Positions 4,327 through 15,264 of a stretch of 36,733 nucleotides of DNA are shown in pieces (positions within the stretch are counted from its first letter, which is position 1; the number at the start of each line of letters is the position of its first letter). The DNA is from an uncultured Bacilli bacterium. Its GTDB lineage: Bacteria > Bacillota_I > Bacilli_A > RF39 > UBA660. A program made the position numbers and the translations under genes. The notes under the pieces are model-generated. The model did not search any database. It was not told where the DNA came from and worked only from the letters and a program-made list of their open reading frames with translations. The stretch covers positions 1-36,733 of the forward strand of contig CALVZI010000074.1 in NCBI GenBank assembly GCA_944372485.1, written 5' to 3'.

Positions 4327-4824
4327 TTAATTATTTTCTTCTAAATTTTTACTATGTAAATCTAAACAAATTGCAAAATCTCTTGGAATAGCCATTAAAC
4401 CAGAAGCAAACATAGTAAGTAATCCTTCTCTTGATGGAATAGCTGCAAGTTTCTTTAATGTATCTAAATCTGTAACTTCACCATCAACGATACCAACTTT
4501 AAGTTGTAATGCTTCGTGTGTTTTAGCAAATTCGTTTAGCACTTTAATTGGAGCAATCATATCTGTTCCAAATGCAACAGCTTTAGGTCCGTTAAGTTCA
4601 TCACCTAAATCAATATTTAATGAATCTAAAGCTCTTTTTGTTAATGTGTTTTTATAAATTTTTAACTCAGAATCATTTTCTCTTAATTTTCTACGAAGTT
4701 CTGTCATATCAGCAACAGTTAACCCTTGGTATTCAAATAAGATAAATGCATTTGATTCTTTTGCATTCTTAGCAATTTCATCAATTACTAATTGTTTCTT
4801 TTCTAGAATTTTTTGATTTGCCAT
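4327..4824 (-). CDS. rplJ: 50S ribosomal protein L10
   Basis: The track ORF (to 4896) starts inside the leader. The real start is MANQKILEKKQ at 4824, behind TAAGGAGGTG. 165 aa, adjacent to rplL. Confidence 0.93.
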   Translation of the reverse strand: MANQKILEKKQLVIDEIAKNAKESNAFILFEYQGLTVADMTELRRKLRENDSELKIYKNTLTKRALDSLNIDLGDELNGPKAVAFGTDMIAPIKVLNEFAKTHEALQLKVGIVDGEVTDLDTLKKLAAIPSREGLLTMFASGLMAIPRDFAICLDLHSKNLEENN

Positions 4825-4966
4825 GTTACACCTCCTTAAATTTATGAGAGTACCATATAAAAGGTTCCTACAACCGCAGGAACCTATTCTAAACATATTA
4901 TAGAATTTGTTGCCTCGGTAGGAAATATTAAGCCTAAGCTCCTACTGTCTACGGTACGTCTTTCAT
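4825..4966 (-). promoter_or_regulatory. ribosomal protein L10 leader (rplJL autoregulatory 5' UTR) with attenuator hairpin
   Basis: ~140-nt unusually G+C-rich untranslated region between the promoter and rplJ. Internal hairpin GTAGGA...TCCTAC. Terminator-like hairpin AGGTTCCT GCGGTTGT AGGAACCT (4862-4885) followed by TTTTATAT on the minus strand. The location matches the Bacillota L10 leader (Rfam RF00557); no covariance model was run. Confidence 0.65.
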
Positions 4967-4972
4967 GTATAC

Positions 4973-6322: not shown

Positions 6323-6901
6323 TTATTTTATTTTTCTTAAAGCTTTTATTATTTCATCATCTAATTCTTTATTATCATCAATATATTGTTCTAACTCTTG
6401 TATCTGCTGTTCTAATACCTTTTTTTGATTTTTCAAATCAAACACTTTAGCTTGTTTCTCTTTTGCTTCATACAATTTTTTTATTTGAAAACATAACTTT
6501 CGATCACTTTGATTTATTTTTTTAGTAGTATCTGGTTTCTTTAAAACATCCCAGACAGTTTTATTTTTAAAATTTTTTATATCTGGATTAAAACCATTTA
6601 AATACCCAAAATATAGAAATGGAGCAATTCTTCCAGTATAATCATCACTTTCTATAACTGTATGCATATATGTATCACCATACATATTAGTTCTTTTATT
6701 AATATTCATTCCATGTTTTATAGCATAATTTAAAAGTATTAATAAATCTTCTTCACTAAAACCAGCATATACAGCTTCTTCAAAAATAGAACAATCATCT
6801 TCTGTTTCTAAATTCCAATCAATATTATAAATATTTTTAAATCCTAATTTAGTCATTAATTTTTTTACCTTATTTTTATCATTATTTATTATATTCAACA
6901 T
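6323..6901 (-). CDS. hypothetical protein, ankyrin-repeat-like N-terminal half plus C-terminal coiled coil
   Basis: Likely start is MLNIINN (6901), 7 nt after GAAGGA; the track start at 6916 has no RBS. ANK-like repeats: ...LLILLNYAIKHGMNINKRTNMYGDTYMHTVIE... and ...YLNGFNPDIKNFKNKTVWDVLKK (compare G-TPLH...GADxN). The C-terminus (KEKQAKVFDLKNQKKVLEQQIQELEQYIDDNKELDDEII) is heptad-like. Confidence 0.45.
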   Translation of the reverse strand: MLNIINNDKNKVKKLMTKLGFKNIYNIDWNLETEDDCSIFEEAVYAGFSEEDLLILLNYAIKHGMNINKRTNMYGDTYMHTVIESDDYTGRIAPFLYFGYLNGFNPDIKNFKNKTVWDVLKKPDTTKKINQSDRKLCFQIKKLYEAKEKQAKVFDLKNQKKVLEQQIQELEQYIDDNKELDDEIIKALRKIK

Positions 6902-6931
6902 AGTACCATCCTTCATTATAATTTATTTTTT

Positions 6932-7802
6932 TTATTCACAATCATCATATTCAAATTCTTCCACATAATCATTAATTGGTTTATTTATATGCAAAAATTT
7001 AACTTTTTTATCTTTTAAGTACATACAATAATGTTCATAACCTTCATTCTCTTTAGAAACTTTATAAAGAAGAATATTATCATTTATTATTCTATTATAT
7101 AAAGTTAATCTTTTAAATTCAAAATTTTTAGGATGAACTTCTAATATGTTTTTTAAAGAAAATAAAATCAAATCACTTGCTTCTTTTAATCCTAAATTAT
7201 TAAAATTAGAATAATCTTTAATAAAATTAAATATTTCATTTAATTTTTCTTCGCCTAATTCTTGCTCATTTAATATTTCTTTTTTTATAATTTTAAATAT
7301 TCTAAATACAATTTTTGATTTGTATACCCAATTTTTAATAACGTATGTTCTTCTAAATAATCTTTTTTCTCATTATCCTTTATTCTAACAGCATCAAATT
7401 TTAACCCTTTTTTGACATTAAAGAAATCGTTTGTATAGCTAACTGGATCAATCTCTATATGAGTTCCATCTTTTAAAGAAGTTATAGAATAAGCATGTCC
7501 AATTTTACCTTAAAATAAAGTAAGATCATAATTTGGATCATTAGATAATAGTATATCAGCAACCATAGCATATGCCCTACTAAAACTTGTACATACTACC
7601 CTTACATCTCTAACATCAAAAACATTTATTTCTTTATTAAATATTTTTTCCGTAAATTGCTAATCATAAAAACCCCATAGCCATCTATGATCATATTGTA
7701 ATTCTTCACACATTCTTTTAACAATATAATATATTTTATCAATAATTGATGCATTTTTTATTTTGAATCAATTTCTTCTTCTAACATACTTAATAAATCC
7801 AT
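6932..7802 (-). pseudogene. decayed transglutaminase-like (Cys-His-Asp) cysteine peptidase-fold gene
   Basis: ATG at 7802 lies behind GAGGTGA and a TGT-TATAAT -10 (7833-7825). The frame is broken near the A-run at 7754-7763, by an in-frame TAG (7660-7662), by an in-frame TAA (7510-7512), and by a second frameshift at an A7 run (7280-7286). The 79-aa track ORF (6932-7171) is its C-terminal remnant. The conceptual product contains VRVVCTSFSRAYAM...(34 aa)...GHAYSITSLKDGTHIEIDP, giving transglutaminase-core spacing. Confidence 0.6.
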
Positions 7803-7854
7803 AGAGTCACCTCAATTGCGCTATATTATAACACATCCAATTATATAATCAAAA

Positions 7855-10680
7855 TTACTTAAATTTCTTTTTTAAGCTTAATTCATATTCCTGGTAAGCC
7901 CTAGGATCATAACTAAAAATACCCGAATATTCTTTATTATCAGAAGTTTTATAGTGATACCAACCATTTCCTACTTCTCCTTCTTTAATTGAATCTAATG
8001 GTGTTTCTTTTCCAATCAAAGCATTTATAATTTGAATATGTTGTTTAACGTTTTTATTGTCTATATTATTAATTTGTTTTACTTTAGATCTACTATCTAA
8101 ATATATGTTATTGGTATTAATATAATTATCTTTAGTTAAAAACGATAGTTCTTGATGCAAAACAACTTGTTGTCCACCTGCATCTGTATATATTTTCGGC
8201 AATAAATCTTTTAATTTATTTTTTACGAAAACAATATTTTCTCTTTTATCCAACTTAATATATTTATTTAACGAGCTAATTTTAACATCTCGAGAATTCC
8301 TTCCTAAAGTAATCATTTTTATTCTTTCAGTTTCATTCTCCTTATAAAATGACTCTTTATAAATCTCTTCTGTTGCTTTTAAATAACAATTAAACCATTC
8401 ATCAACATTTTTTTGTTCATTTTTTATACACTCTATATTATCAAAACAAACAACATTTCCATTTCGCCATACCCAACTTTGAGCAATTAAGACATTATCT
8501 TTCCACACACAAAAAATACGATTATCAGGATTTAACATTGTATAATGAACCGCAGTCTTAGCATGCCCATCAATTCTAAAACAACAATTAGTTAGTTTTC
8601 CAACTGCTAAAGCAAGTGGATCATTTGTATTTAACATTTCATAATGATAACCATTATATTCTCCTTTTACTTGCGGTATAGTTGCATAATAACGCATTTT
8701 CATATCAAGATAATATTTTTTTATATTAGAAATAGCTAAATCACTATTTCCAATATAAAATAAGTAAGGCTTCAAATCAAAATATTCTATTCCTATATCA
8801 TATGATTGAAATAATTGTTTTTCAACAAATGATTTTATCATTGAAAGAGAGAGTTTTTGACTAGGATAAAATTTAATAATTTTATCCCAATTATTATAAA
8901 TATTGGCGAAATTTTTTACAATAATATTTTCTGCATTTAATTTTTTTAAAACTCCATTTTCTTTCCCAAAAAATAAATTAATTAATTTTTGATTATATTC
9001 AATTTTTCCATCTTTAGAAATTTTTATTTTAGATTTATCTATACTATCAAACAATAATTCCATTATTCTATAGTCATACTGACATTCATTTAAGATTTTC
9101 TTTAACTTATCAAAAGGAAAAACCATCAAACCACATAATAACAACTGAGAATATGTACTATGATTTCCAAAATCAGAAATGACATACGTACTAACACCAT
9201 TAACACCATTATATTTAACCCTATTCCAATAATCTTTAATAATTTTTAAATATTCCTTAGCATTAATGGCCATTATTTGTTTTAATTTAAAATCATCAAT
9301 GGCTCCCATTTCAATATTAAAACGTTTATGTACACATAATTCTAACTCATTATTAAAATATAATAGTTTACAAAGCGGAAAGCCATTAATACATCTTTTA
9401 TAATATATCCTTAAAATTTTCTTAAAATATTCTTCATCGTCCTTTATAGTAATATATTCTATAAGATCATGTAATAATAATTGATAACCAAAATCAAACA
9501 ATTCTTTATTATTATGCTTATTTAAATATGCCAATAATTTAATGTAATCATCACAAAAAATTGTATTAATATTTTTTATTTTTTCTAATGTTATATCTTC
9601 TTTTTTTAATTTTTTTTCTAATAATTCAAAATATTTGAGATATTCAAAATAATCATTGTTGTGCAAATAATTAGTAATTTCTTTATAATTTCCTTTTGTT
9701 TCTAAATAATATCTAATTAGTGGTGCTTGGCTAATCGTATTTTTTAAAATAATTTTTTTTATATTTTCATTATCAAGTATTTTAGAGATTAAGAAAGGAT
9801 ATTTTTTTAATATATCAACTTTTTCTTTTACCAATATGTTAAAAAAGGGCATAAATAAGGTAATACCATAGTCTAAATTTTCATTTACAAATAAATATTT
9901 ATAATACTTTTTAAAAAACAAATCCATTGTTATTAAATTACCAGTATACCCTACATATTTATCGATTTTTTCAAACTTCAATAATTTTTGTTTTATTTTT
10001 TCATCATATTTATTTAATAAAGATAATCCTTCATTTGTATCTTTTTTCATAAATATTTTGTGCATGATTTCCGATAAACTTATTCTTTCTTCATTTAATT
10101 CTTTTATATTGTTAAGTAAATCATCAAGAACTCCATTTTCATAAATCGCATCTAAATATTGATTTTTTTCTTTATTTTTATTTAAATCACTCTTTGAATA
10201 AAAATTATTAATAGCCAAAATATAATCATTTGTTTTTTGATAATTTATTTTTAAATGATACTCTTCTAATAATTTAATTTTTTCATCTAAAGTTAAACAT
10301 CTAGATTCAGCAATAGTTTTTTCTTTAGCGAATTTTAATATATTAATATTTTTATCAATTAAAAATTTTATAGAATCATAATATAAACAATCAATTACAC
10401 TTTTATGACTTAAGTCTATACTATTAAGAAATCCTTGGATTATAGTTAAATTATCCTTTATATTATCTTTAAAAAAGTTTAATTGTTCCTCTCTTGTACT
10501 AATTTTTAATAATTTATAAAAAACAGAAATATTAATATCTCTTAAATCAATATTTTGTAACTTCAAATTAGAATCAATTTCACTATTATCAAAATCAATA
10601 ATATTAGTTAAAGTTGTAATATCTTCAAATTCAATTAATTTAACAATTAAGTTATCAATATAATAACTAGTTTTTGGCAT
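7855..10680 (-). CDS. large hypothetical protein, paralogue A (941 aa): diverged helical N-terminal ~650 aa plus conserved C-terminal Cys/His domain
   Basis: Intact 941-aa ORF with AAAGGTGGTGA RBS. No signal peptide or TM segment is visible. The C-terminal block YYATIPQVKGEYNGYHYEMLNTNDP...GKLTNCCFRIDGHAKTAVHYTMLNP.NRIFCVWKDN...AQSWVWR.GN..CFDNIECIK is almost invariant with the neighbouring paralogue. Confidence 0.85.
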   Translation of the reverse strand: MPKTSYYIDNLIVKLIEFEDITTLTNIIDFDNSEIDSNLKLQNIDLRDINISVFYKLLKISTREEQLNFFKDNIKDNLTIIQGFLNSIDLSHKSVIDCLYYDSIKFLIDKNINILKFAKEKTIAESRCLTLDEKIKLLEEYHLKINYQKTNDYILAINNFYSKSDLNKNKEKNQYLDAIYENGVLDDLLNNIKELNEERISLSEIMHKIFMKKDTNEGLSLLNKYDEKIKQKLLKFEKIDKYVGYTGNLITMDLFFKKYYKYLFVNENLDYGITLFMPFFNILVKEKVDILKKYPFLISKILDNENIKKIILKNTISQAPLIRYYLETKGNYKEITNYLHNNDYFEYLKYFELLEKKLKKEDITLEKIKNINTIFCDDYIKLLAYLNKHNNKELFDFGYQLLLHDLIEYITIKDDEEYFKKILRIYYKRCINGFPLCKLLYFNNELELCVHKRFNIEMGAIDDFKLKQIMAINAKEYLKIIKDYWNRVKYNGVNGVSTYVISDFGNHSTYSQLLLCGLMVFPFDKLKKILNECQYDYRIMELLFDSIDKSKIKISKDGKIEYNQKLINLFFGKENGVLKKLNAENIIVKNFANIYNNWDKIIKFYPSQKLSLSMIKSFVEKQLFQSYDIGIEYFDLKPYLFYIGNSDLAISNIKKYYLDMKMRYYATIPQVKGEYNGYHYEMLNTNDPLALAVGKLTNCCFRIDGHAKTAVHYTMLNPDNRIFCVWKDNVLIAQSWVWRNGNVVCFDNIECIKNEQKNVDEWFNCYLKATEEIYKESFYKENETERIKMITLGRNSRDVKISSLNKYIKLDKRENIVFVKNKLKDLLPKIYTDAGGQQVVLHQELSFLTKDNYINTNNIYLDSRSKVKQINNIDNKNVKQHIQIINALIGKETPLDSIKEGEVGNGWYHYKTSDNKEYSGIFSYDPRAYQEYELSLKKKFK
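7858..8035. repeat. near-identical 3'-terminal coding block, copy 1 (partner 10789-10966)
   Basis: Hand alignment at a constant offset of 2931 nt gives 7 mismatches in 178 nt with no indels. The flanking gene sequence is much more diverged. Confidence 0.9.
8467..8718. repeat. highly conserved catalytic-domain-like coding block, copy 1 (partner 11413-11664)
   Basis: Hand alignment at an offset of 2946 nt gives 18 mismatches in 252 nt with no indels. The block encodes YYATIPQ...NCCFRIDGH...SWVWR. Confidence 0.85.
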
Positions 10681-10706
10681 AAATCACCACCTTTAAAATT
10701 TCAAAT

Positions 10707-10715
10707 ATTATATCA
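10707..10715 (-). promoter_or_regulatory. extended -10 promoter of paralogue A
   Basis: Minus strand TGA-TATAAT (10715-10707). The -35 is weak (TTTTCT). The 5' UTR aligns with that of paralogue B. Confidence 0.45.
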
Positions 10716-10743
10716 CATTAAACTATTAAAGAAAAACTTTTTC

Positions 10744-10767
10744 CCATGCTTTCTCTATTTCTATAAA
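10744..10767 (-). other. 24-nt relic resembling the 3' end of nusG, between the two paralogues
   Basis: Plus strand 10744-10767 (CCATGCTTTCTCTATTTCTATAAA) versus nusG end 13706-13729 (CTATGCTTTCTCAATTTCTGTAAG): 20 of 24 identical. Confidence 0.4.
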
Positions 10768-10785
10768 AATTATTTTGACACAAAA

Positions 10786-13638
10786 CTATTTAAATTTCTT
10801 TTTTAAGCTTAATTCATATTCCTGGTAAGCTCTAGGATCATAACTAAAAATACCCGAATATTCTTTATTATCAGAAATTTTATAGTGATACCAACCATCT
10901 CCTATTTCTCCTTCTTTAATTGAATCTAATGGTGTTTCTTTACCAATTAAAGCATTAATACTTATAATTTTATCTTTTATTCTTTTTAGTAATAAAATAT
11001 CATTACTTATTTTAGATATATTCTGAATTTTAGACCTTTTATCTAAATAAATATTATGGCACTCTTTACTGTTTTTCTTTACTGTGAAACATGGTTCTTT
11101 ATATAAAACTATCTGTTCATATATTGAATCAGTATAAATCTTCTTTATTTCATTAGGTATTTCACTAGTTGGAATTAACATTTCTTCTTTATTTTTAATA
11201 TTTTCATAAGATTTAAGTTGCTCAATTACAACATCTTTAGGATTTCTTCCTAACGTAATCATTTTTATATGTTCTAATTCATTCTCTTTTTTTAATGAAT
11301 CTGTATAAATCTTTTTAGCAGCTTCTAAATAACATTCTCCCCAAATATTAGCATTTGCAACTTCTTTTTTTATACATTCAATATTATCAAAACACAAATA
11401 ATTTCCTTTTCTCCATACCCAACTTTGAGCAACTAATTCATTATCCTTCCACACACAAAAAATACGATTATTTGGATTTAACATTGTATAATGAAGTGCA
11501 GTTTTAGCATGCCCATCAATTCTAAAACAGCAATTAGTTAGTTTTCCAACTGCTAAAACAAAAGGATCATTTGTATTTAACATTTCATAATGATAACCAT
11601 TAAATTCTCCTTTTACTTGTGGTATAGTTGCATAGTAACGCATTTTCATATCTAAATAATATTTATCTAAAATTTCAAATACTTCTTTATCATTATTAAT
11701 TTTCTCATTACAAATAATATAATATAAATAATCTTTAAGATCATTATATTGAGGTGGTAGCTTTTCATCAACAAAGAATTTTTCTTTAACAAAATTTTTT
11801 GCCATTTTTAAAGATATATTTTTAGTTTTATAAAATTTTATAATATCATCCCAATAATTATAAATATATGTAAAATAAATTACTAAATCATTATTATTAT
11901 CTAAAGACTTAAATTTTTGATTATTTTTAAAAATTAAATTAATCATTTTTTTATTATAAATAATTTTATTACCATCAATTATAACTTTATTTATATCAAT
12001 ATCTTTAAATAATTTTTTTATGATTACAATAAAATTATCATCTATATTATCTAATATTATTTTTAATTTATCATAAGGAAATACTAACAAACCTTTTAAT
12101 ATAAAATACTCAAAATCATCTTTATTTTCAATTTTATATTTAGATTCATACTTTTTAATTATTTTTAGATATTCTTTAGCATTAATAACTTTTATTTTTT
12201 TTATATCACAAATATCAGCAACAGCAAATTCTTTTTTAAATTTTTGATGAATATTAAGTTCAATTTCATCATTAAAATATAATAACTTACTTAAAGGAAA
12301 CCCATTAATACAATTTTTATAATATAACTTCATTAGTCCTTCATATTCTTCTTCATTGTCTTTTACTTTAACAAATTTTTTTATATCTTTTATAAATATT
12401 TTGTAACCAAAATCATACACTTCTTTATTATCATGAGTATTTAAGTACGACAATAATTTAATATAATCATTAGAATATATTGTTTTAATATTTTTTATTT
12501 CTTTTAAAGATATTTCTTTATTTCTTAAATTTTTTTCTAACTTTAAAAAATAATTAAAATAAATATTATAATAATATTCATCTAAACATAAAGCAATATC
12601 TTTAAAATCAGCTTTATTTTCTAAAAAATATTTACAAATTGGTAAATTATAATTAAAATTTTCCATAATTATTTTTTTTATTTCTAAGCTATCTAAATTT
12701 TTTAAAGAAAACAAAGGGTAATATTTTAAAATATCTTCACCTCTTTGTAAAACCCTATTAAAAAATGGAATATAAAATTTCATAGCGTATTCTAAATTAT
12801 TTTCTGTAAATATAATATTAGTATACTTTTTCATAAATAATTTAATTAATTCAAAATTTTTATAATTAAATAAATTTTCATTAAAAGTTTCATGATTTAA
12901 TAATCTTTTTATTATTTCTTCGTTGTATTTATTTAATAATTTAATTCCATCATTTTTATATTCTTGTCTAAATATTTTATATAAGATATCATTTAAACTA
13001 ATTCTTTTTTGATTTAAACTTTTTATATGCTTAAACATTTCCTCTAGTTCATACTCACTATATGTATCTTGTGCGAAATAATAATTTTTATTTATTTTAA
13101 AATCACTTGACTCTAATTGAATAAATATTTCGTTCATTTTATCCTTTTCTTCTTGGCTGTAATAATCTAAAATCAAATTAATAATATCAGCAACTGTTTG
13201 ATAATCAACTTTTAAATAATAATTTTCTAATAAAGCAATTTTTTCTTGTAAAGTTATACCATCAGACTTGGCAATAGATTCTCTAGGAACGATATCAAGC
13301 AAATTTATACCATTTTCAATTAAATAAACAATTGTATCATAATACAAAACGTAAAATAAACTTTCCTTTTCAAGACTACAAATTTTAAATAGTTTTTCAA
13401 AGATTTCTGAATGTTGATTAATATTCTTTTTAAAGAAAGATAATTGTTCTTCTCTATTACTATTTTTTAATGCATTATAAAAATTATTGATATTTAAATT
13501 ATTAACATCAATATTTTCTAATTTAATTGTTTCATCAACATTTCCATTAAATTGAACTAACTGAGAAAGAGAATGAATGTCAATTTTTTCCATTATAAAT
13601 TTTAATATTTCTTTTTGTATATCTAATTTTTTTGGCAT
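10786..13638 (-). CDS. large hypothetical protein, paralogue B (950 aa), same architecture as 7855-10680
   Basis: Intact 950-aa ORF with AGAAGGTGA RBS. It is collinear with paralogue A over its whole length. By eye the N-terminus is ~40% identical, and the last 57 aa differ at 3 positions. Confidence 0.85.
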   Translation of the reverse strand: MPKKLDIQKEILKFIMEKIDIHSLSQLVQFNGNVDETIKLENIDVNNLNINNFYNALKNSNREEQLSFFKKNINQHSEIFEKLFKICSLEKESLFYVLYYDTIVYLIENGINLLDIVPRESIAKSDGITLQEKIALLENYYLKVDYQTVADIINLILDYYSQEEKDKMNEIFIQLESSDFKINKNYYFAQDTYSEYELEEMFKHIKSLNQKRISLNDILYKIFRQEYKNDGIKLLNKYNEEIIKRLLNHETFNENLFNYKNFELIKLFMKKYTNIIFTENNLEYAMKFYIPFFNRVLQRGEDILKYYPLFSLKNLDSLEIKKIIMENFNYNLPICKYFLENKADFKDIALCLDEYYYNIYFNYFLKLEKNLRNKEISLKEIKNIKTIYSNDYIKLLSYLNTHDNKEVYDFGYKIFIKDIKKFVKVKDNEEEYEGLMKLYYKNCINGFPLSKLLYFNDEIELNIHQKFKKEFAVADICDIKKIKVINAKEYLKIIKKYESKYKIENKDDFEYFILKGLLVFPYDKLKIILDNIDDNFIVIIKKLFKDIDINKVIIDGNKIIYNKKMINLIFKNNQKFKSLDNNNDLVIYFTYIYNYWDDIIKFYKTKNISLKMAKNFVKEKFFVDEKLPPQYNDLKDYLYYIICNEKINNDKEVFEILDKYYLDMKMRYYATIPQVKGEFNGYHYEMLNTNDPFVLAVGKLTNCCFRIDGHAKTALHYTMLNPNNRIFCVWKDNELVAQSWVWRKGNYLCFDNIECIKKEVANANIWGECYLEAAKKIYTDSLKKENELEHIKMITLGRNPKDVVIEQLKSYENIKNKEEMLIPTSEIPNEIKKIYTDSIYEQIVLYKEPCFTVKKNSKECHNIYLDKRSKIQNISKISNDILLLKRIKDKIISINALIGKETPLDSIKEGEIGDGWYHYKISDNKEYSGIFSYDPRAYQEYELSLKKKFK
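10789..10966. repeat. near-identical 3'-terminal coding block, copy 2 (partner 7858-8035)
   Basis: See partner: 171 of 178 nt identical. Confidence 0.9.
11413..11664. repeat. highly conserved catalytic-domain-like coding block, copy 2 (partner 8467-8718)
   Basis: See partner: 234 of 252 nt identical. Confidence 0.85.
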
Positions 13639-13666
13639 AATTTCACCTTCTTAAATTTTTTCAGTT

Positions 13667-13675
13667 ATTATAACA
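13667..13675 (-). promoter_or_regulatory. extended -10 promoter of paralogue B
   Basis: Minus strand TGT-TATAAT (13675-13667), immediately after the nusG terminator. No good -35. Confidence 0.45.
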
Positions 13676-13684
13676 CATAAACTC

Positions 13685-13715
13685 AAAAAAAAGAAAGCAT
13701 ATACACTATGCTTTC
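13685..13715 (-). terminator. rho-independent terminator of secE-nusG
   Basis: 9-bp stem GAAAGCATA / TATGCTTTC (13693-13701 / 13707-13715) with a 5-nt loop, followed on the minus strand by T8 (13692-13685). The stem includes the nusG TAG stop. Confidence 0.8.
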
Positions 13716-14239
13716 TCAATTTCTGTAAGAGCTAACTCAACAGTTGTTTCTTGACCAAATAAGTCAATGATTACTTCTAATTGTTGATGTTCAAAATCAA
13801 TCTTCTTAACAGTACCAATCATACCTTGGAATGGTCCAGAAATAACTTTTACTTTATCATCTTCTTTTAATTCATTACCTAAATCAAGACGACTCATTCC
13901 CATGCTTCCTAAAATATGATCTACTTCTTCTGGTGTTAGTGGGAATGGTTTAGCACCTTTACCACTAGAACCAATAAATCCTGTAACACCTGGTGTATTA
14001 CGTACAATAAACCATGCTTCATCAGTCATAACCATTTCAACTAAAATATAACCTGGAAACATTTTTACATTTTTTTCTTTTTCTTTTCCATCTTTTGTTT
14101 CAATTACTTTTTGTTCAGGAACGACTACACGATAAATATAATCTTCCATTCCCATTGAACTTGCTCGCATCTCTAACTTTTCTTTTACTTTATTCTCGTG
14201 ACCTGAATAAGTATTAACTACATACCATTCTTTTTGCAT
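13706..14239 (-). CDS. nusG: transcription termination/antitermination factor NusG
   Basis: 177 aa: MQKEWYVVNTYSGHENKVKEKLE... NGN domain, C-terminal KOW (VKVISGPFQGMIGTVKKID). The ATG overlaps the secE stop (TAATG). Confidence 0.96.
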   Translation of the reverse strand: MQKEWYVVNTYSGHENKVKEKLEMRASSMGMEDYIYRVVVPEQKVIETKDGKEKEKNVKMFPGYILVEMVMTDEAWFIVRNTPGVTGFIGSSGKGAKPFPLTPEEVDHILGSMGMSRLDLGNELKEDDKVKVISGPFQGMIGTVKKIDFEHQQLEVIIDLFGQETTVELALTEIEKA

Positions 14240-14496: not shown

Positions 14497-15210
14497 TTAT
14501 TTTTTATAAATTAAATTATAATAATCATTATTTTTATTTTCACTAAAGTATGTTTTATATTTTTTTAGCATAGAAATTATTTCTTCAGAACTATATAACT
14601 TAAAGAAATTTTCCACTCTTATATCACTAATTACTTTTTTTCCAACTAATCGAATGTGATTTTGTATATCATATTCTGGTAAATTAATTTTATCATTTCC
14701 ATAAACATCAAAAACAGCTTTATCTTTTTTATTTCCACAAACAATTTGCATAAATTCACATTCATCTTTTAAGAAATATTTTGTATAACCTTTTTCAATA
14801 TCTATAGCATCAACTAAACTATCAATATTAATGTTAGGATATGTTTTTCCAAAGTTTATCAACTTAATTAACATGATATCTAACTTTTGATTTTTTAATT
14901 CATAAACTTTACGTGGATTATAATGATATTTTAAATATCCCTTTTTATATCCACCAAAAATATTTTGTAATTCTTTAGGAATATTAATTTTTATTCCTCC
15001 GTCAAAATAAATTTTAGTTCCACCTTTTTTCTTATCAAATAAATCATTAGCAAAATTCTCATCAAGATTAATTTTTTTAGCTTGTTTTAAAGAATATTTT
15101 TTAATTTCACTCATATAATTCTTTACTATATTGTTAGTATAATCTAACGTTAATAAAGATTCTAATTCAATTAGTATATCATTATAAAATTCTATATATG
15201 CTAAATTCAT
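14497..15210 (-). CDS. hypothetical protein (237 aa), no recognisable domain
   Basis: The track ORF (to 15264) includes the promoter. The real start is MNLAYIEFYND at 15210, 6 nt after GGAGGGG. It has its own promoter and terminator. Confidence 0.7.
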   Translation of the reverse strand: MNLAYIEFYNDILIELESLLTLDYTNNIVKNYMSEIKKYSLKQAKKINLDENFANDLFDKKKGGTKIYFDGGIKINIPKELQNIFGGYKKGYLKYHYNPRKVYELKNQKLDIMLIKLINFGKTYPNINIDSLVDAIDIEKGYTKYFLKDECEFMQIVCGNKKDKAVFDVYGNDKINLPEYDIQNHIRLVGKKVISDIRVENFFKLYSSEEIISMLKKYKTYFSENKNNDYYNLIYKK

Positions 15211-15235
15211 AAAATCCCCTCCTCTATGAGGTACT

Positions 15236-15264
15236 ATTTTATTCTTTTTATTATTTTTTGTCAA
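15236..15264 (-). promoter_or_regulatory. sigma-A-type promoter of the 237-aa orphan
   Basis: Minus strand: TTGACA (15264-15259), 17 nt, TAAAAT (15241-15236). Confidence 0.6.

Follow-up and report, generated by a model that had tools for sequence, protein, structure and literature searches.

Several effectors carried by mobile elements have the acyltransferase (GNAT) fold, the precedents being the anti-CRISPR protein AcrVA5 and the toxins TacT and AtaT of toxin-antitoxin (TA) systems, which covalently modify a macromolecule of the host or of a rival. These are small proteins (about 90-180 amino acids) and canonical acetyl-coenzyme A (CoA) GNATs with a recognisable motif A. In another set of enzymes, comprising FemX/FemABX, the leucyl/phenylalanyl-tRNA-protein transferase (LFTR), the arginyltransferase ATE1 and N-myristoyltransferase (NMT), a GNAT-like core without a CoA P-loop is part of a two-lobed architecture. 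GNAT-fold proteins with cysteine-rich metal sites also exist, among them the MYST acetyltransferases and ATE1. Here, we report a computational analysis of a tandem pair of long open reading frames (ORFs) on the minus strand of contig CALVZI010000074.1 from an uncultured Bacilli bacterium (assembly GCA_944372485.1); the whole stretch of DNA analysed, 36,733 nucleotides (nt), is referred to as the window. The pair consists of an upstream copy, ORF B (950 amino acids (aa), 10786..13638), and a downstream copy, ORF A (941 aa, 7855..10680).

The C-terminal domain of these proteins defines a new, large sequence family inside a known fold class. We tentatively interpret it as a GNAT-fold enzyme with a non-canonical donor or Cys-based chemistry, whose variable helical region would pick the target and whose role would be accessory and perhaps related to conflict. 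Such proteins would resemble AcrVA5, TacT and AtaT in fold, in their presence on mobile elements and in the covalent modification of macromolecules, and differ from them in size and in motif A; they showed no homology to these effectors. A preliminary description of the pair, made from the letters of the DNA, had set out a variable N-terminal region joined to an invariant Cys/His domain with a loose resemblance to PcfJ; the feature is real, and that description is largely accurate except for the PcfJ lead and a His motif.

Predicted fold and conserved residues

The conserved domain occupies residues 650-941 of ORF A (7858..8733, minus strand), as outlined by an AlphaFold2 (AF2) model and Foldseek, and residues 654-950 of ORF B (10789..11679, minus strand), as outlined by alignment and by the family hidden Markov model (HMM), which matches residues 654-949. 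The AF2 model of ORF A residues 640-941, built with a 25-sequence alignment, reached pLDDT 90.7 and pTM 0.89 and shows a GNAT-like lobe (about residues 663-845) followed by a smaller α/β lobe (about 850-941). The predicted order of elements is β1-α1-α2-β2-β3-β4-α3-β5-α4-β6, and the second lobe is composed of two β-strands, a helix, three strands and another helix. When this model was compared with the PDB using Foldseek, the top 50 matches listed were all GNAT acetyltransferases (for example, 6ao7, PCAF 1cm0, human GCN5, SACOL1063, RimI and PaiA) except for the tRNA cytidine acetyltransferase TmcA (2zpa), with E-values of 2.6e-4 to 8e-3, probabilities of 0.95-1.00 and, for the better-aligned matches of about 170 columns, target-normalised TM-scores of 0.5-0.63. 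In BFVD, the best match was an uncharacterised phage protein (E = 8.5e-11), evidently a member of the same family, followed by GNATs. On the predicted model, the domain appears to be a GNAT fold with splayed strands β4 and β5, to which the smaller α/β lobe is added.

The predicted fold is what the family has in common with the GNAT superfamily (GCN5/PCAF, RimI, PaiA), the source of nearly all significant Foldseek matches, and its acidic residues Asp747 and Glu750 are located at the end of β4, the place of the general base in GCN5-type enzymes. Unlike these proteins, family members match no Acetyltransf profile, lack the pyrophosphate loop, display a signature of their own (CC, SWxWR and CFDNxE), contain the extra C-terminal lobe and are fused to helical regions of 400-1,500 residues. 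A core without a CoA P-loop is also found in FemX/FemABX, LFTR, ATE1 and NMT; the β-α-β3-α pattern of the second lobe is compatible with bilobed non-acyl-CoA transferases, as are the weak BFVD matches (E = 1e-2 or worse), short of significance, to NMT, to a FemAB protein of a phage and to phage acetyltransferases with two domains. ATE1 also has a conserved CC pair. However, the long matches to this group have a root-mean-square deviation (rmsd) above 20 Å, and they show no sequence similarity to the family.

Conservation was measured, in ORF A numbering, in 259 non-identical members and in the 25-sequence alignment. The positions conserved in at least 95% of the 259 members are Arg663, Ile668, Pro669, Gly694, Cys699 (98%), Cys700 (100%), Arg721, Phe723, Gln734, Ser735, Trp736, Trp738, Arg739, Cys745, Phe746, Asp747, Asn748, Glu750, Tyr766, Thr791, Gly793 and Gln838. 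In the model, the CC pair is in the α1-α2 loop, RxF in β2, AQSWVWR in β3, CFDNIE at the end of β4, Tyr766 in α3 and TxG in β5. These residues seem to frame the GNAT active-site cleft, a placement derived from the topology and not from measured distances.

On the minus strand of the window, Cys699-Cys700 of the NCC motif of ORF A are encoded at 8581..8586 (98% and 100% Cys, respectively, in 255 rows), and the NCC motif of ORF B, with Cys703-Cys704, at 11527-11535. AQSWVWR (residues 733-739) is found at 8464..8484 (11410-11430 in ORF B), with Ser735, Trp736, Trp738 and Arg739 about 100% conserved; CFDNIE (residues 745-750) at 8431..8448 (11377-11394 in ORF B), with Cys745, Asp747 and Glu750 likewise about 100% conserved; and ITLGRN (residues 790-795) at 8296..8313, with Thr791 at 95% and Gly793 at 100%. 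For SWVWR, conservation among the genome loci is partly circular, since these were retrieved with this very motif; it is equally invariant among the HMM-derived matches.

All motifs listed in the preliminary description are found in both ORFs. Of the proposed Cys/His character, the Cys part holds, with Cys699, Cys700 and Cys745 being 98-100% conserved and retained across the homologues. The His of the "DGH" motif, put forward as a candidate catalytic residue, does not: His706 is not kept among the 259 members, where Ala, Val and Cys are the commonest residues at this variable position. A different His, located in a helix and conserved in 92% of the family, is replaced by Tyr713 in ORF A, by Tyr in ORF B, and by Tyr also in the relatives P0006 and P0007.

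The N-terminal 645 residues are predicted to be all-helical, with a pLDDT of 58 and a confident AF2 prediction for about residues 40-300 only; residues 1 to about 650 of ORF B are likewise helical and variable. Foldseek comparison of the N-terminal model with the PDB gave nothing below E = 0.1, the matches being generic α-solenoids. Residues from about 500 to 640 are common to many family members, and residues 1-500 to the closest relatives only. Both proteins are rich in Lys, Leu, Ile and Asn, and the composition and the helical prediction agree with the Lys/Asn/Ile-rich, helical N-terminal part described before. The maximum Kyte-Doolittle mean over 19 residues is 1.2, with no transmembrane (TM) or signal-like stretch, again as originally stated, and the two proteins are probably cytoplasmic.

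A large family outside the curated libraries

ORF A, ORF B and two nearby ORFs of 197 and 255 aa gave only noise when compared with Pfam, NCBIfam, PHROGs and PADLOC, as did 25 family members when compared with Pfam at E ≤ 10. When Pfam and NCBIfam were applied to diverse and giant members, DUF4116 repeats were detected in one protein, a BspA-type leucine-rich repeat (LRR) in another, and nothing else. A giant member and the 197-aa ORF had no meaningful match among PDB sequences, and in the literature on DUF4116 and PcfJ we found no function. With Pfam, NCBIfam, PHROGs, PADLOC and PDB-sequence searches all empty, the C-terminal module indeed fits no characterised or curated family, as had been proposed.

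Because low-complexity sequence at the N-terminus filled the list of candidates, a word-indexed search with the full-length protein returned nothing beyond a 99% copy; the same kind of search with the C-terminal 302 residues, and next with an alignment as the query, recovered 49 proteins. None of these is Pfam-annotated for the domain (P0051 bears an unrelated BspA-type LRR_5 repeat), and the few that are named are called "hypothetical protein, Bacilli bacterium". An exhaustive hmmsearch of 1.84 billion representatives of clusters at 50% identity detected 3,797 representatives at E ≤ 1e-3, 2,120 at E ≤ 1e-10 and 410 at E ≤ 1e-30. Judging by these searches, the family is very large and is covered by no curated library.

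Many of the hmmsearch matches are 1,200-1,800 aa long and end with the domain. Its position is C-terminal at every one of the 88 loci examined (88/88), where protein length ranges from 570 to 1,870 aa, and the preceding region of 400 to 1,500 residues varies by subfamily. The hosts of 80 genome loci are chiefly uncultured gut bacteria represented by metagenome-assembled genomes labelled "Bacilli bacterium", "Tenericutes" and "Mycoplasma sp. CAG", along with Clostridia; a few Muribaculaceae and one Ignavibacteriales bin also appear, where binning errors are possible. Among phages, tblastn identified relatives in Microcystis phages only, and ORF68L (697 aa) of Microcystis phage MaMV-DC contains a recognisable core of the domain. 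A tblastn search of plasmids produced no match.

The tandem pair and its genomic contexts

The two ORFs are collinear throughout, with 49% identity, and both their lengths and their coordinates are as first described. In 50-residue segments, identity is 30-54% across residues 1-635 (33% in 1-50 and 42% in 51-100, in keeping with the earlier estimate of about 40% for the first 70 residues). In the C-terminal part, it is 70% (636-679), 92% (680-729), 58% (730-779), 42-48% (780-875) and 82-100% (876-941). The last ~290 residues, which had been called strongly conserved and invariant, thus contain two highly conserved blocks (residues 650-745 and 885-941 of ORF A), with about 100 residues between them that are as diverged as the N-terminus. 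DNA identity is about 60% over most of the two genes and 96-97% at their 3' ends (10781-10898 in ORF B versus 7855-7972 in ORF A, about 118 nt including the stop region). The near-identical ends may result from recent gene conversion, which is inseparable here from codon bias; synonymous differences are low throughout this AT-rich gene.

Upstream of the pair are secE and nusG, and downstream, in this order, the 197-aa ORF, rplK, rplA, an L10 leader, rplJ and rplL, so that the pair interrupts the normally contiguous nusG-rplKAJL cluster. The G+C content of the window is low (about 20-30%), and every long ORF is on the minus strand; ORFs of about 945 codons cannot, on this sequence evidence, be chance products in DNA of 20% G+C. 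The region upstream of ORF B (13639..13717, minus strand) contains the terminator-like hairpin 3' of nusG (13691-13717, minus strand), then the extended -10 box TGTGTTATAAT, then the ribosome-binding site (RBS) AGAAGGTG, the start of ORF B being about 50 nt past the hairpin. The intergenic region upstream of ORF A (10681..10785, minus strand), read from the sequence, contains gagaaagcat..., the extended -10 box TGTGATATAAT and the RBS AAAGGTGG. Each of the two genes is thus preceded by a strong RBS and an extended -10 box, and the two upstream regions are paralogous to one another, which makes the promoter part of the duplicated unit.

In two relatives, L008 and L011, the nusG|rplK site is occupied by only one copy (946 aa in L011), and ORF A and ORF B cluster together in a neighbour-joining tree; together, these observations imply duplication in the lineage of the window and extensive divergence afterwards. 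On sequence comparison, then, the pair is a lineage-specific tandem duplication that includes the promoter. The proteins flanking the pair are 70-92% identical to those of the relatives, versus 48% for ORF A and 44% for ORF B, in line with the suggestion that a conserved module is joined to a faster-evolving helical region. A copy of ORF A with 99% identity (P0001) is present on an independent metagenome contig. In the 99.5%-identical strain contig (L097), ORF A differs by five synonymous and five non-synonymous changes, the latter all outside the motifs.

Each subfamily has its own conserved gene immediately downstream, often overlapping the stop codon. In the window, this position is taken by the 197-aa ORF (6323..6916, minus strand), which is restricted to this lineage, is 55% identical in two relatives and matches no family; the 194-aa counterpart of the relatives directly follows the single family gene and overlaps its end, and a functional partnership between the large gene and the small ORF is possible. 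ORF A and the 197-aa ORF are separated by an AT-rich spacer of 938 nt (6917..7854, minus strand; 21.5% G+C), with a sole ORF of 79 aa at 6932-7171 (minus strand); the spacer is retained in the strain contig and missing from L011. Its origin as a decayed third copy was ruled out by blastn and tblastn, and it is unrelated to any sequence fetched. A 255-aa ORF (14497-15264, minus strand) is also fast-evolving, being 44% identical to its relatives and without any library match, and together with the 197-aa ORF flanks the block of secE/nusG and the tandem pair. The L10 leader (Rfam RF00557, 78.6 bits) is located at 4847-4972 (minus strand) upstream of rplJ; the 189-aa ORF listed at 4327..4896 begins at an upstream in-frame ATG inside this leader, and L10 of the relatives is 166 aa long.

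Elsewhere in the family, a divergent ProA-like aldehyde dehydrogenase of about 337 aa lies downstream on the same strand in 50 of the 80 loci (TIGR00407, 85 bits against a cut-off of 317; Pfam Aldedh, E = 5.5e-8). The giant subfamily (1,200-1,680 aa) always precedes this gene, as at L070:7127-8140 and L006:12219-13226. The ProA-like gene is constant and the genes on the upstream side vary, a pattern suggestive of a two-gene module. A 264-aa ORF is found downstream in 14 loci, and a CSD-like ORF of 77-86 aa in four (L001, L003, L004 and L099); a small CSD-like protein is the downstream neighbour in the P0031/P0032/P0034 group. In two of these four loci (L003:6909-10491 and L099:6550-10476), there is a four-gene cassette of a 252-295-aa ORF, a 104-aa ORF, the family protein (746-749 aa) and an overlapping CSD-like ORF of 78-86 aa; it occurs once in an integrase/Mob_Pre element with an MvaI/BcnI-type endonuclease and once on the chromosome beside secA.

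Tandem copies of family genes are present on six other contigs, including one three-copy array. Contig JAEEMF010000072.1 (L038/L043) has three family copies in a row, and at L037:1174-8288 two adjacent copies are each split by a frameshift. At L006:7591-12229, two ORFs with a 20-nt overlap, one of 809 aa for the N-terminal and one of 742 aa for the C-terminal part, take the place of the giant protein, with transposase genes on the flanks; the split reflects either a frameshift or a protein truly made in two parts. P0032 is encoded within an integrative mobilizable element (IME) with an integrase and Mob_Pre, P0012 lies between transposases, the 990-aa subfamily has a relaxase-like ORF upstream, and other members are next to oriC genes or beside secA. 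Overall, the link of the family to mobility is only partial. Involvement in conflict systems is inferred from the integrase/Mob_Pre and transposase contexts, the recurrent tandem copies and the fast evolution.

Possible function and alternative explanations

We propose that the domain acts as an enzyme of the acyl- or aminoacyl-transferase type. A near-invariant set of residues (Gly694, Cys699-Cys700, Arg721, Ser735, Trp736, Trp738, Arg739, Cys745, Asp747, Asn748, Glu750, Tyr766, Thr791, Gly793 and Gln838) would sit, judging from the topology, at the splayed β4/β5 cleft, the site of donor binding and transfer in GNATs. Since the β4-α3 loop lacks the pyrophosphate motif and is variable in length (about 3 to 25 residues across the family), the donor is probably not bound as in the classical acetyl-CoA GNATs. 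Catalysis might proceed via a Cys thioester, with Asp747 or Glu750 as the base; alternatively, another activated donor, such as an aminoacyl-tRNA or an acyl carrier, could be used. The all-helical, fast-diverging N-terminal region of about 650 residues would select the target or partner, and each protein would be transcribed from its own promoter and act in the cytoplasm. The most likely setting would be a horizontally spread accessory function, the modification of macromolecules in competition between genomes or elements, which became fixed at this chromosomal site. A more specific and more doubtful version, although still a real possibility, is that the CC/SWxWR/CFDNxE domain is an unrecognised large branch of the GNAT fold that has lost the CoA loop and performs Cys-based modification of macromolecules, through either a covalent acyl- or aminoacyl-Cys or a metal or Fe-S centre, with the target set by the modular helical N-termini, among them those of 1,500 residues in gut Bacilli with reduced genomes.

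Several observations weigh against an enzyme of this kind. No Pfam Acetyltransf or NCBIfam model matches the domain (for Pfam, even at E ≤ 10 across 25 members), and a PDB sequence search with the family profile gave 0 matches at E ≤ 10. The Foldseek E-values are modest, the rmsd is about 6 Å, and all of these comparisons involve a predicted model. The CoA motif Q/R-x-x-G-x-G/A is absent, with no conserved Gly or Arg in the β4-α3 loop of either the 25 or the 259 sequences, and the three invariant Cys residues are compatible with a structural metal or Fe-S site. As for a role in conflict, neither ORF A, ORF B, the 197-aa ORF nor the 255-aa ORF matches a PADLOC-DB 2.0 model at E ≤ 1, and a scan of IMG/VR viral contigs with two family motifs found no relative. 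Most genome loci have no mobility gene nearby, three related genomes keep the gene at the same place in the chromosome, and the strain-level comparison shows no sign of positive selection (5 versus 5 changes). Nevertheless, we rank each of the following alternatives below the enzymatic reading.

The alternative that survives best, unlikely as we consider it, is a non-catalytic GNAT-like scaffold in which Cys699, Cys700 and Cys745, along with the His/Tyr713 position, hold a structural Zn or Fe-S site, the protein serving by binding as an adaptor or sensor. The three invariant Cys residues, the 92% His and the absent CoA-binding motif would fit such a scaffold, for which the Cys-rich metal sites of MYST and ATE1 offer a parallel. 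However, the invariant Ser735, Arg739, Asp747, Asn748, Glu750, Tyr766 and Gln838 amount to more polar residues without a ligand role than a structural site would call for, and the His is lost in the protein's own clade, where ORF A, ORF B, P0006 and P0007 all have Tyr.

Somewhat less plausible still is a two-gene module of the TA or effector-immunity type in which the large protein would supply the toxic or effector activity and the product of the variable downstream gene would neutralise it. The subfamily-specific conserved downstream genes (194-197 aa, ~337-aa ProA-like, 264 aa and 77-86-aa CSD-like) are what such a module would contain, and GNAT toxins have a precedent in TacT and AtaT. Here, however, the partner varies while the putative toxic domain is constant, the reverse of immunity specificity; ORF B lacks a partner of this kind; library scans detected no secretion or toxin-delivery domains, nor was there a PADLOC match; and the proteins are 5-10 times larger than TA toxins. 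The layout of polymorphic toxins, with a delivery domain at the N-terminus, a variable toxin at the C-terminus and a cognate immunity gene downstream, is reversed relative to the variable N-terminus and constant C-terminus of the family; no delivery domains were found in it, and its downstream partner gene, although present, is different between subfamilies.

The preliminary description had pointed to PcfJ, and the C-terminal module could accordingly be a divergent PcfJ-like domain (PF14284) with PcfJ's role on conjugative elements, which we regard as improbable. Both domains are C-terminal in large proteins on mobile elements, some family members being cargo of mobilizable elements; both have a conserved Cys after a Gly-containing turn; and the layouts are similar by eye (G-x4-C, a basic-hydrophobic strand, two further strands). 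A single structural match, ranked sixth in BFVD (E = 2.1e-3, 126 columns), was to a 1,403-aa phage "PcfJ-like" protein, within which the matching columns were not placed, and is weaker than the GNAT matches. The PF14284 HMM, however, does not match ORF A or ORF B at E ≤ 1 or the 25 members at E ≤ 10, and hhalign of the family profile (A3) against pCF10 PcfJ, or against a six-sequence alignment (A5) of that protein and five further PcfJ domains down to 34% identity, gave a probability of 0.08% and aligned 5-13 columns only, in the wrong place. PcfJ has HCV where the family has [CS]C, the HCV motif and the T-x-E and Q-x-x-G-x-x-N positions of PcfJ have no family counterpart, and PcfJ has no equivalent of SWxWR or CFDNxE. 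Membership in PcfJ is thus not supported by the sequence comparisons, and at most a very distant common fold may be involved.

Least probable is a housekeeping role, in which a RimI/RimJ/RimL-like protein would modify components of translation or transcription and reside for that reason in the nusG-rplKAJL cluster: the nusG/rplK position is kept in three related genomes, RimI structures are among the Foldseek matches, and a methyltransferase gene also follows rplL, but homologues elsewhere are found near oriC, in an IME, between transposases and beside secA, the evolution of the gene far outpaces that of the adjacent ribosomal genes, a promoter of its own follows the terminator-like hairpin of nusG, and RimI matches no better than other GNATs.

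For the window itself, the tandem pair accounts for the odd break in the otherwise universal nusG-rplKAJL arrangement. If the more specific, Cys-based version of the enzymatic reading is correct, the family would amount to a new class of modifying enzymes, spreading horizontally and duplicating in tandem. The fold, predicted with confidence, gives a testable handle on the family, namely a predicted acyltransferase-type cleft with three invariant Cys residues and an Asp/Glu pair but no cofactor loop. About 3,800 clusters, including some of the largest proteins of uncultured gut Bacilli with small genomes, are missed by all current annotation libraries. The donor and the target, once worked out, would annotate thousands of genes now listed as "hypothetical" and might reveal a new modification chemistry.

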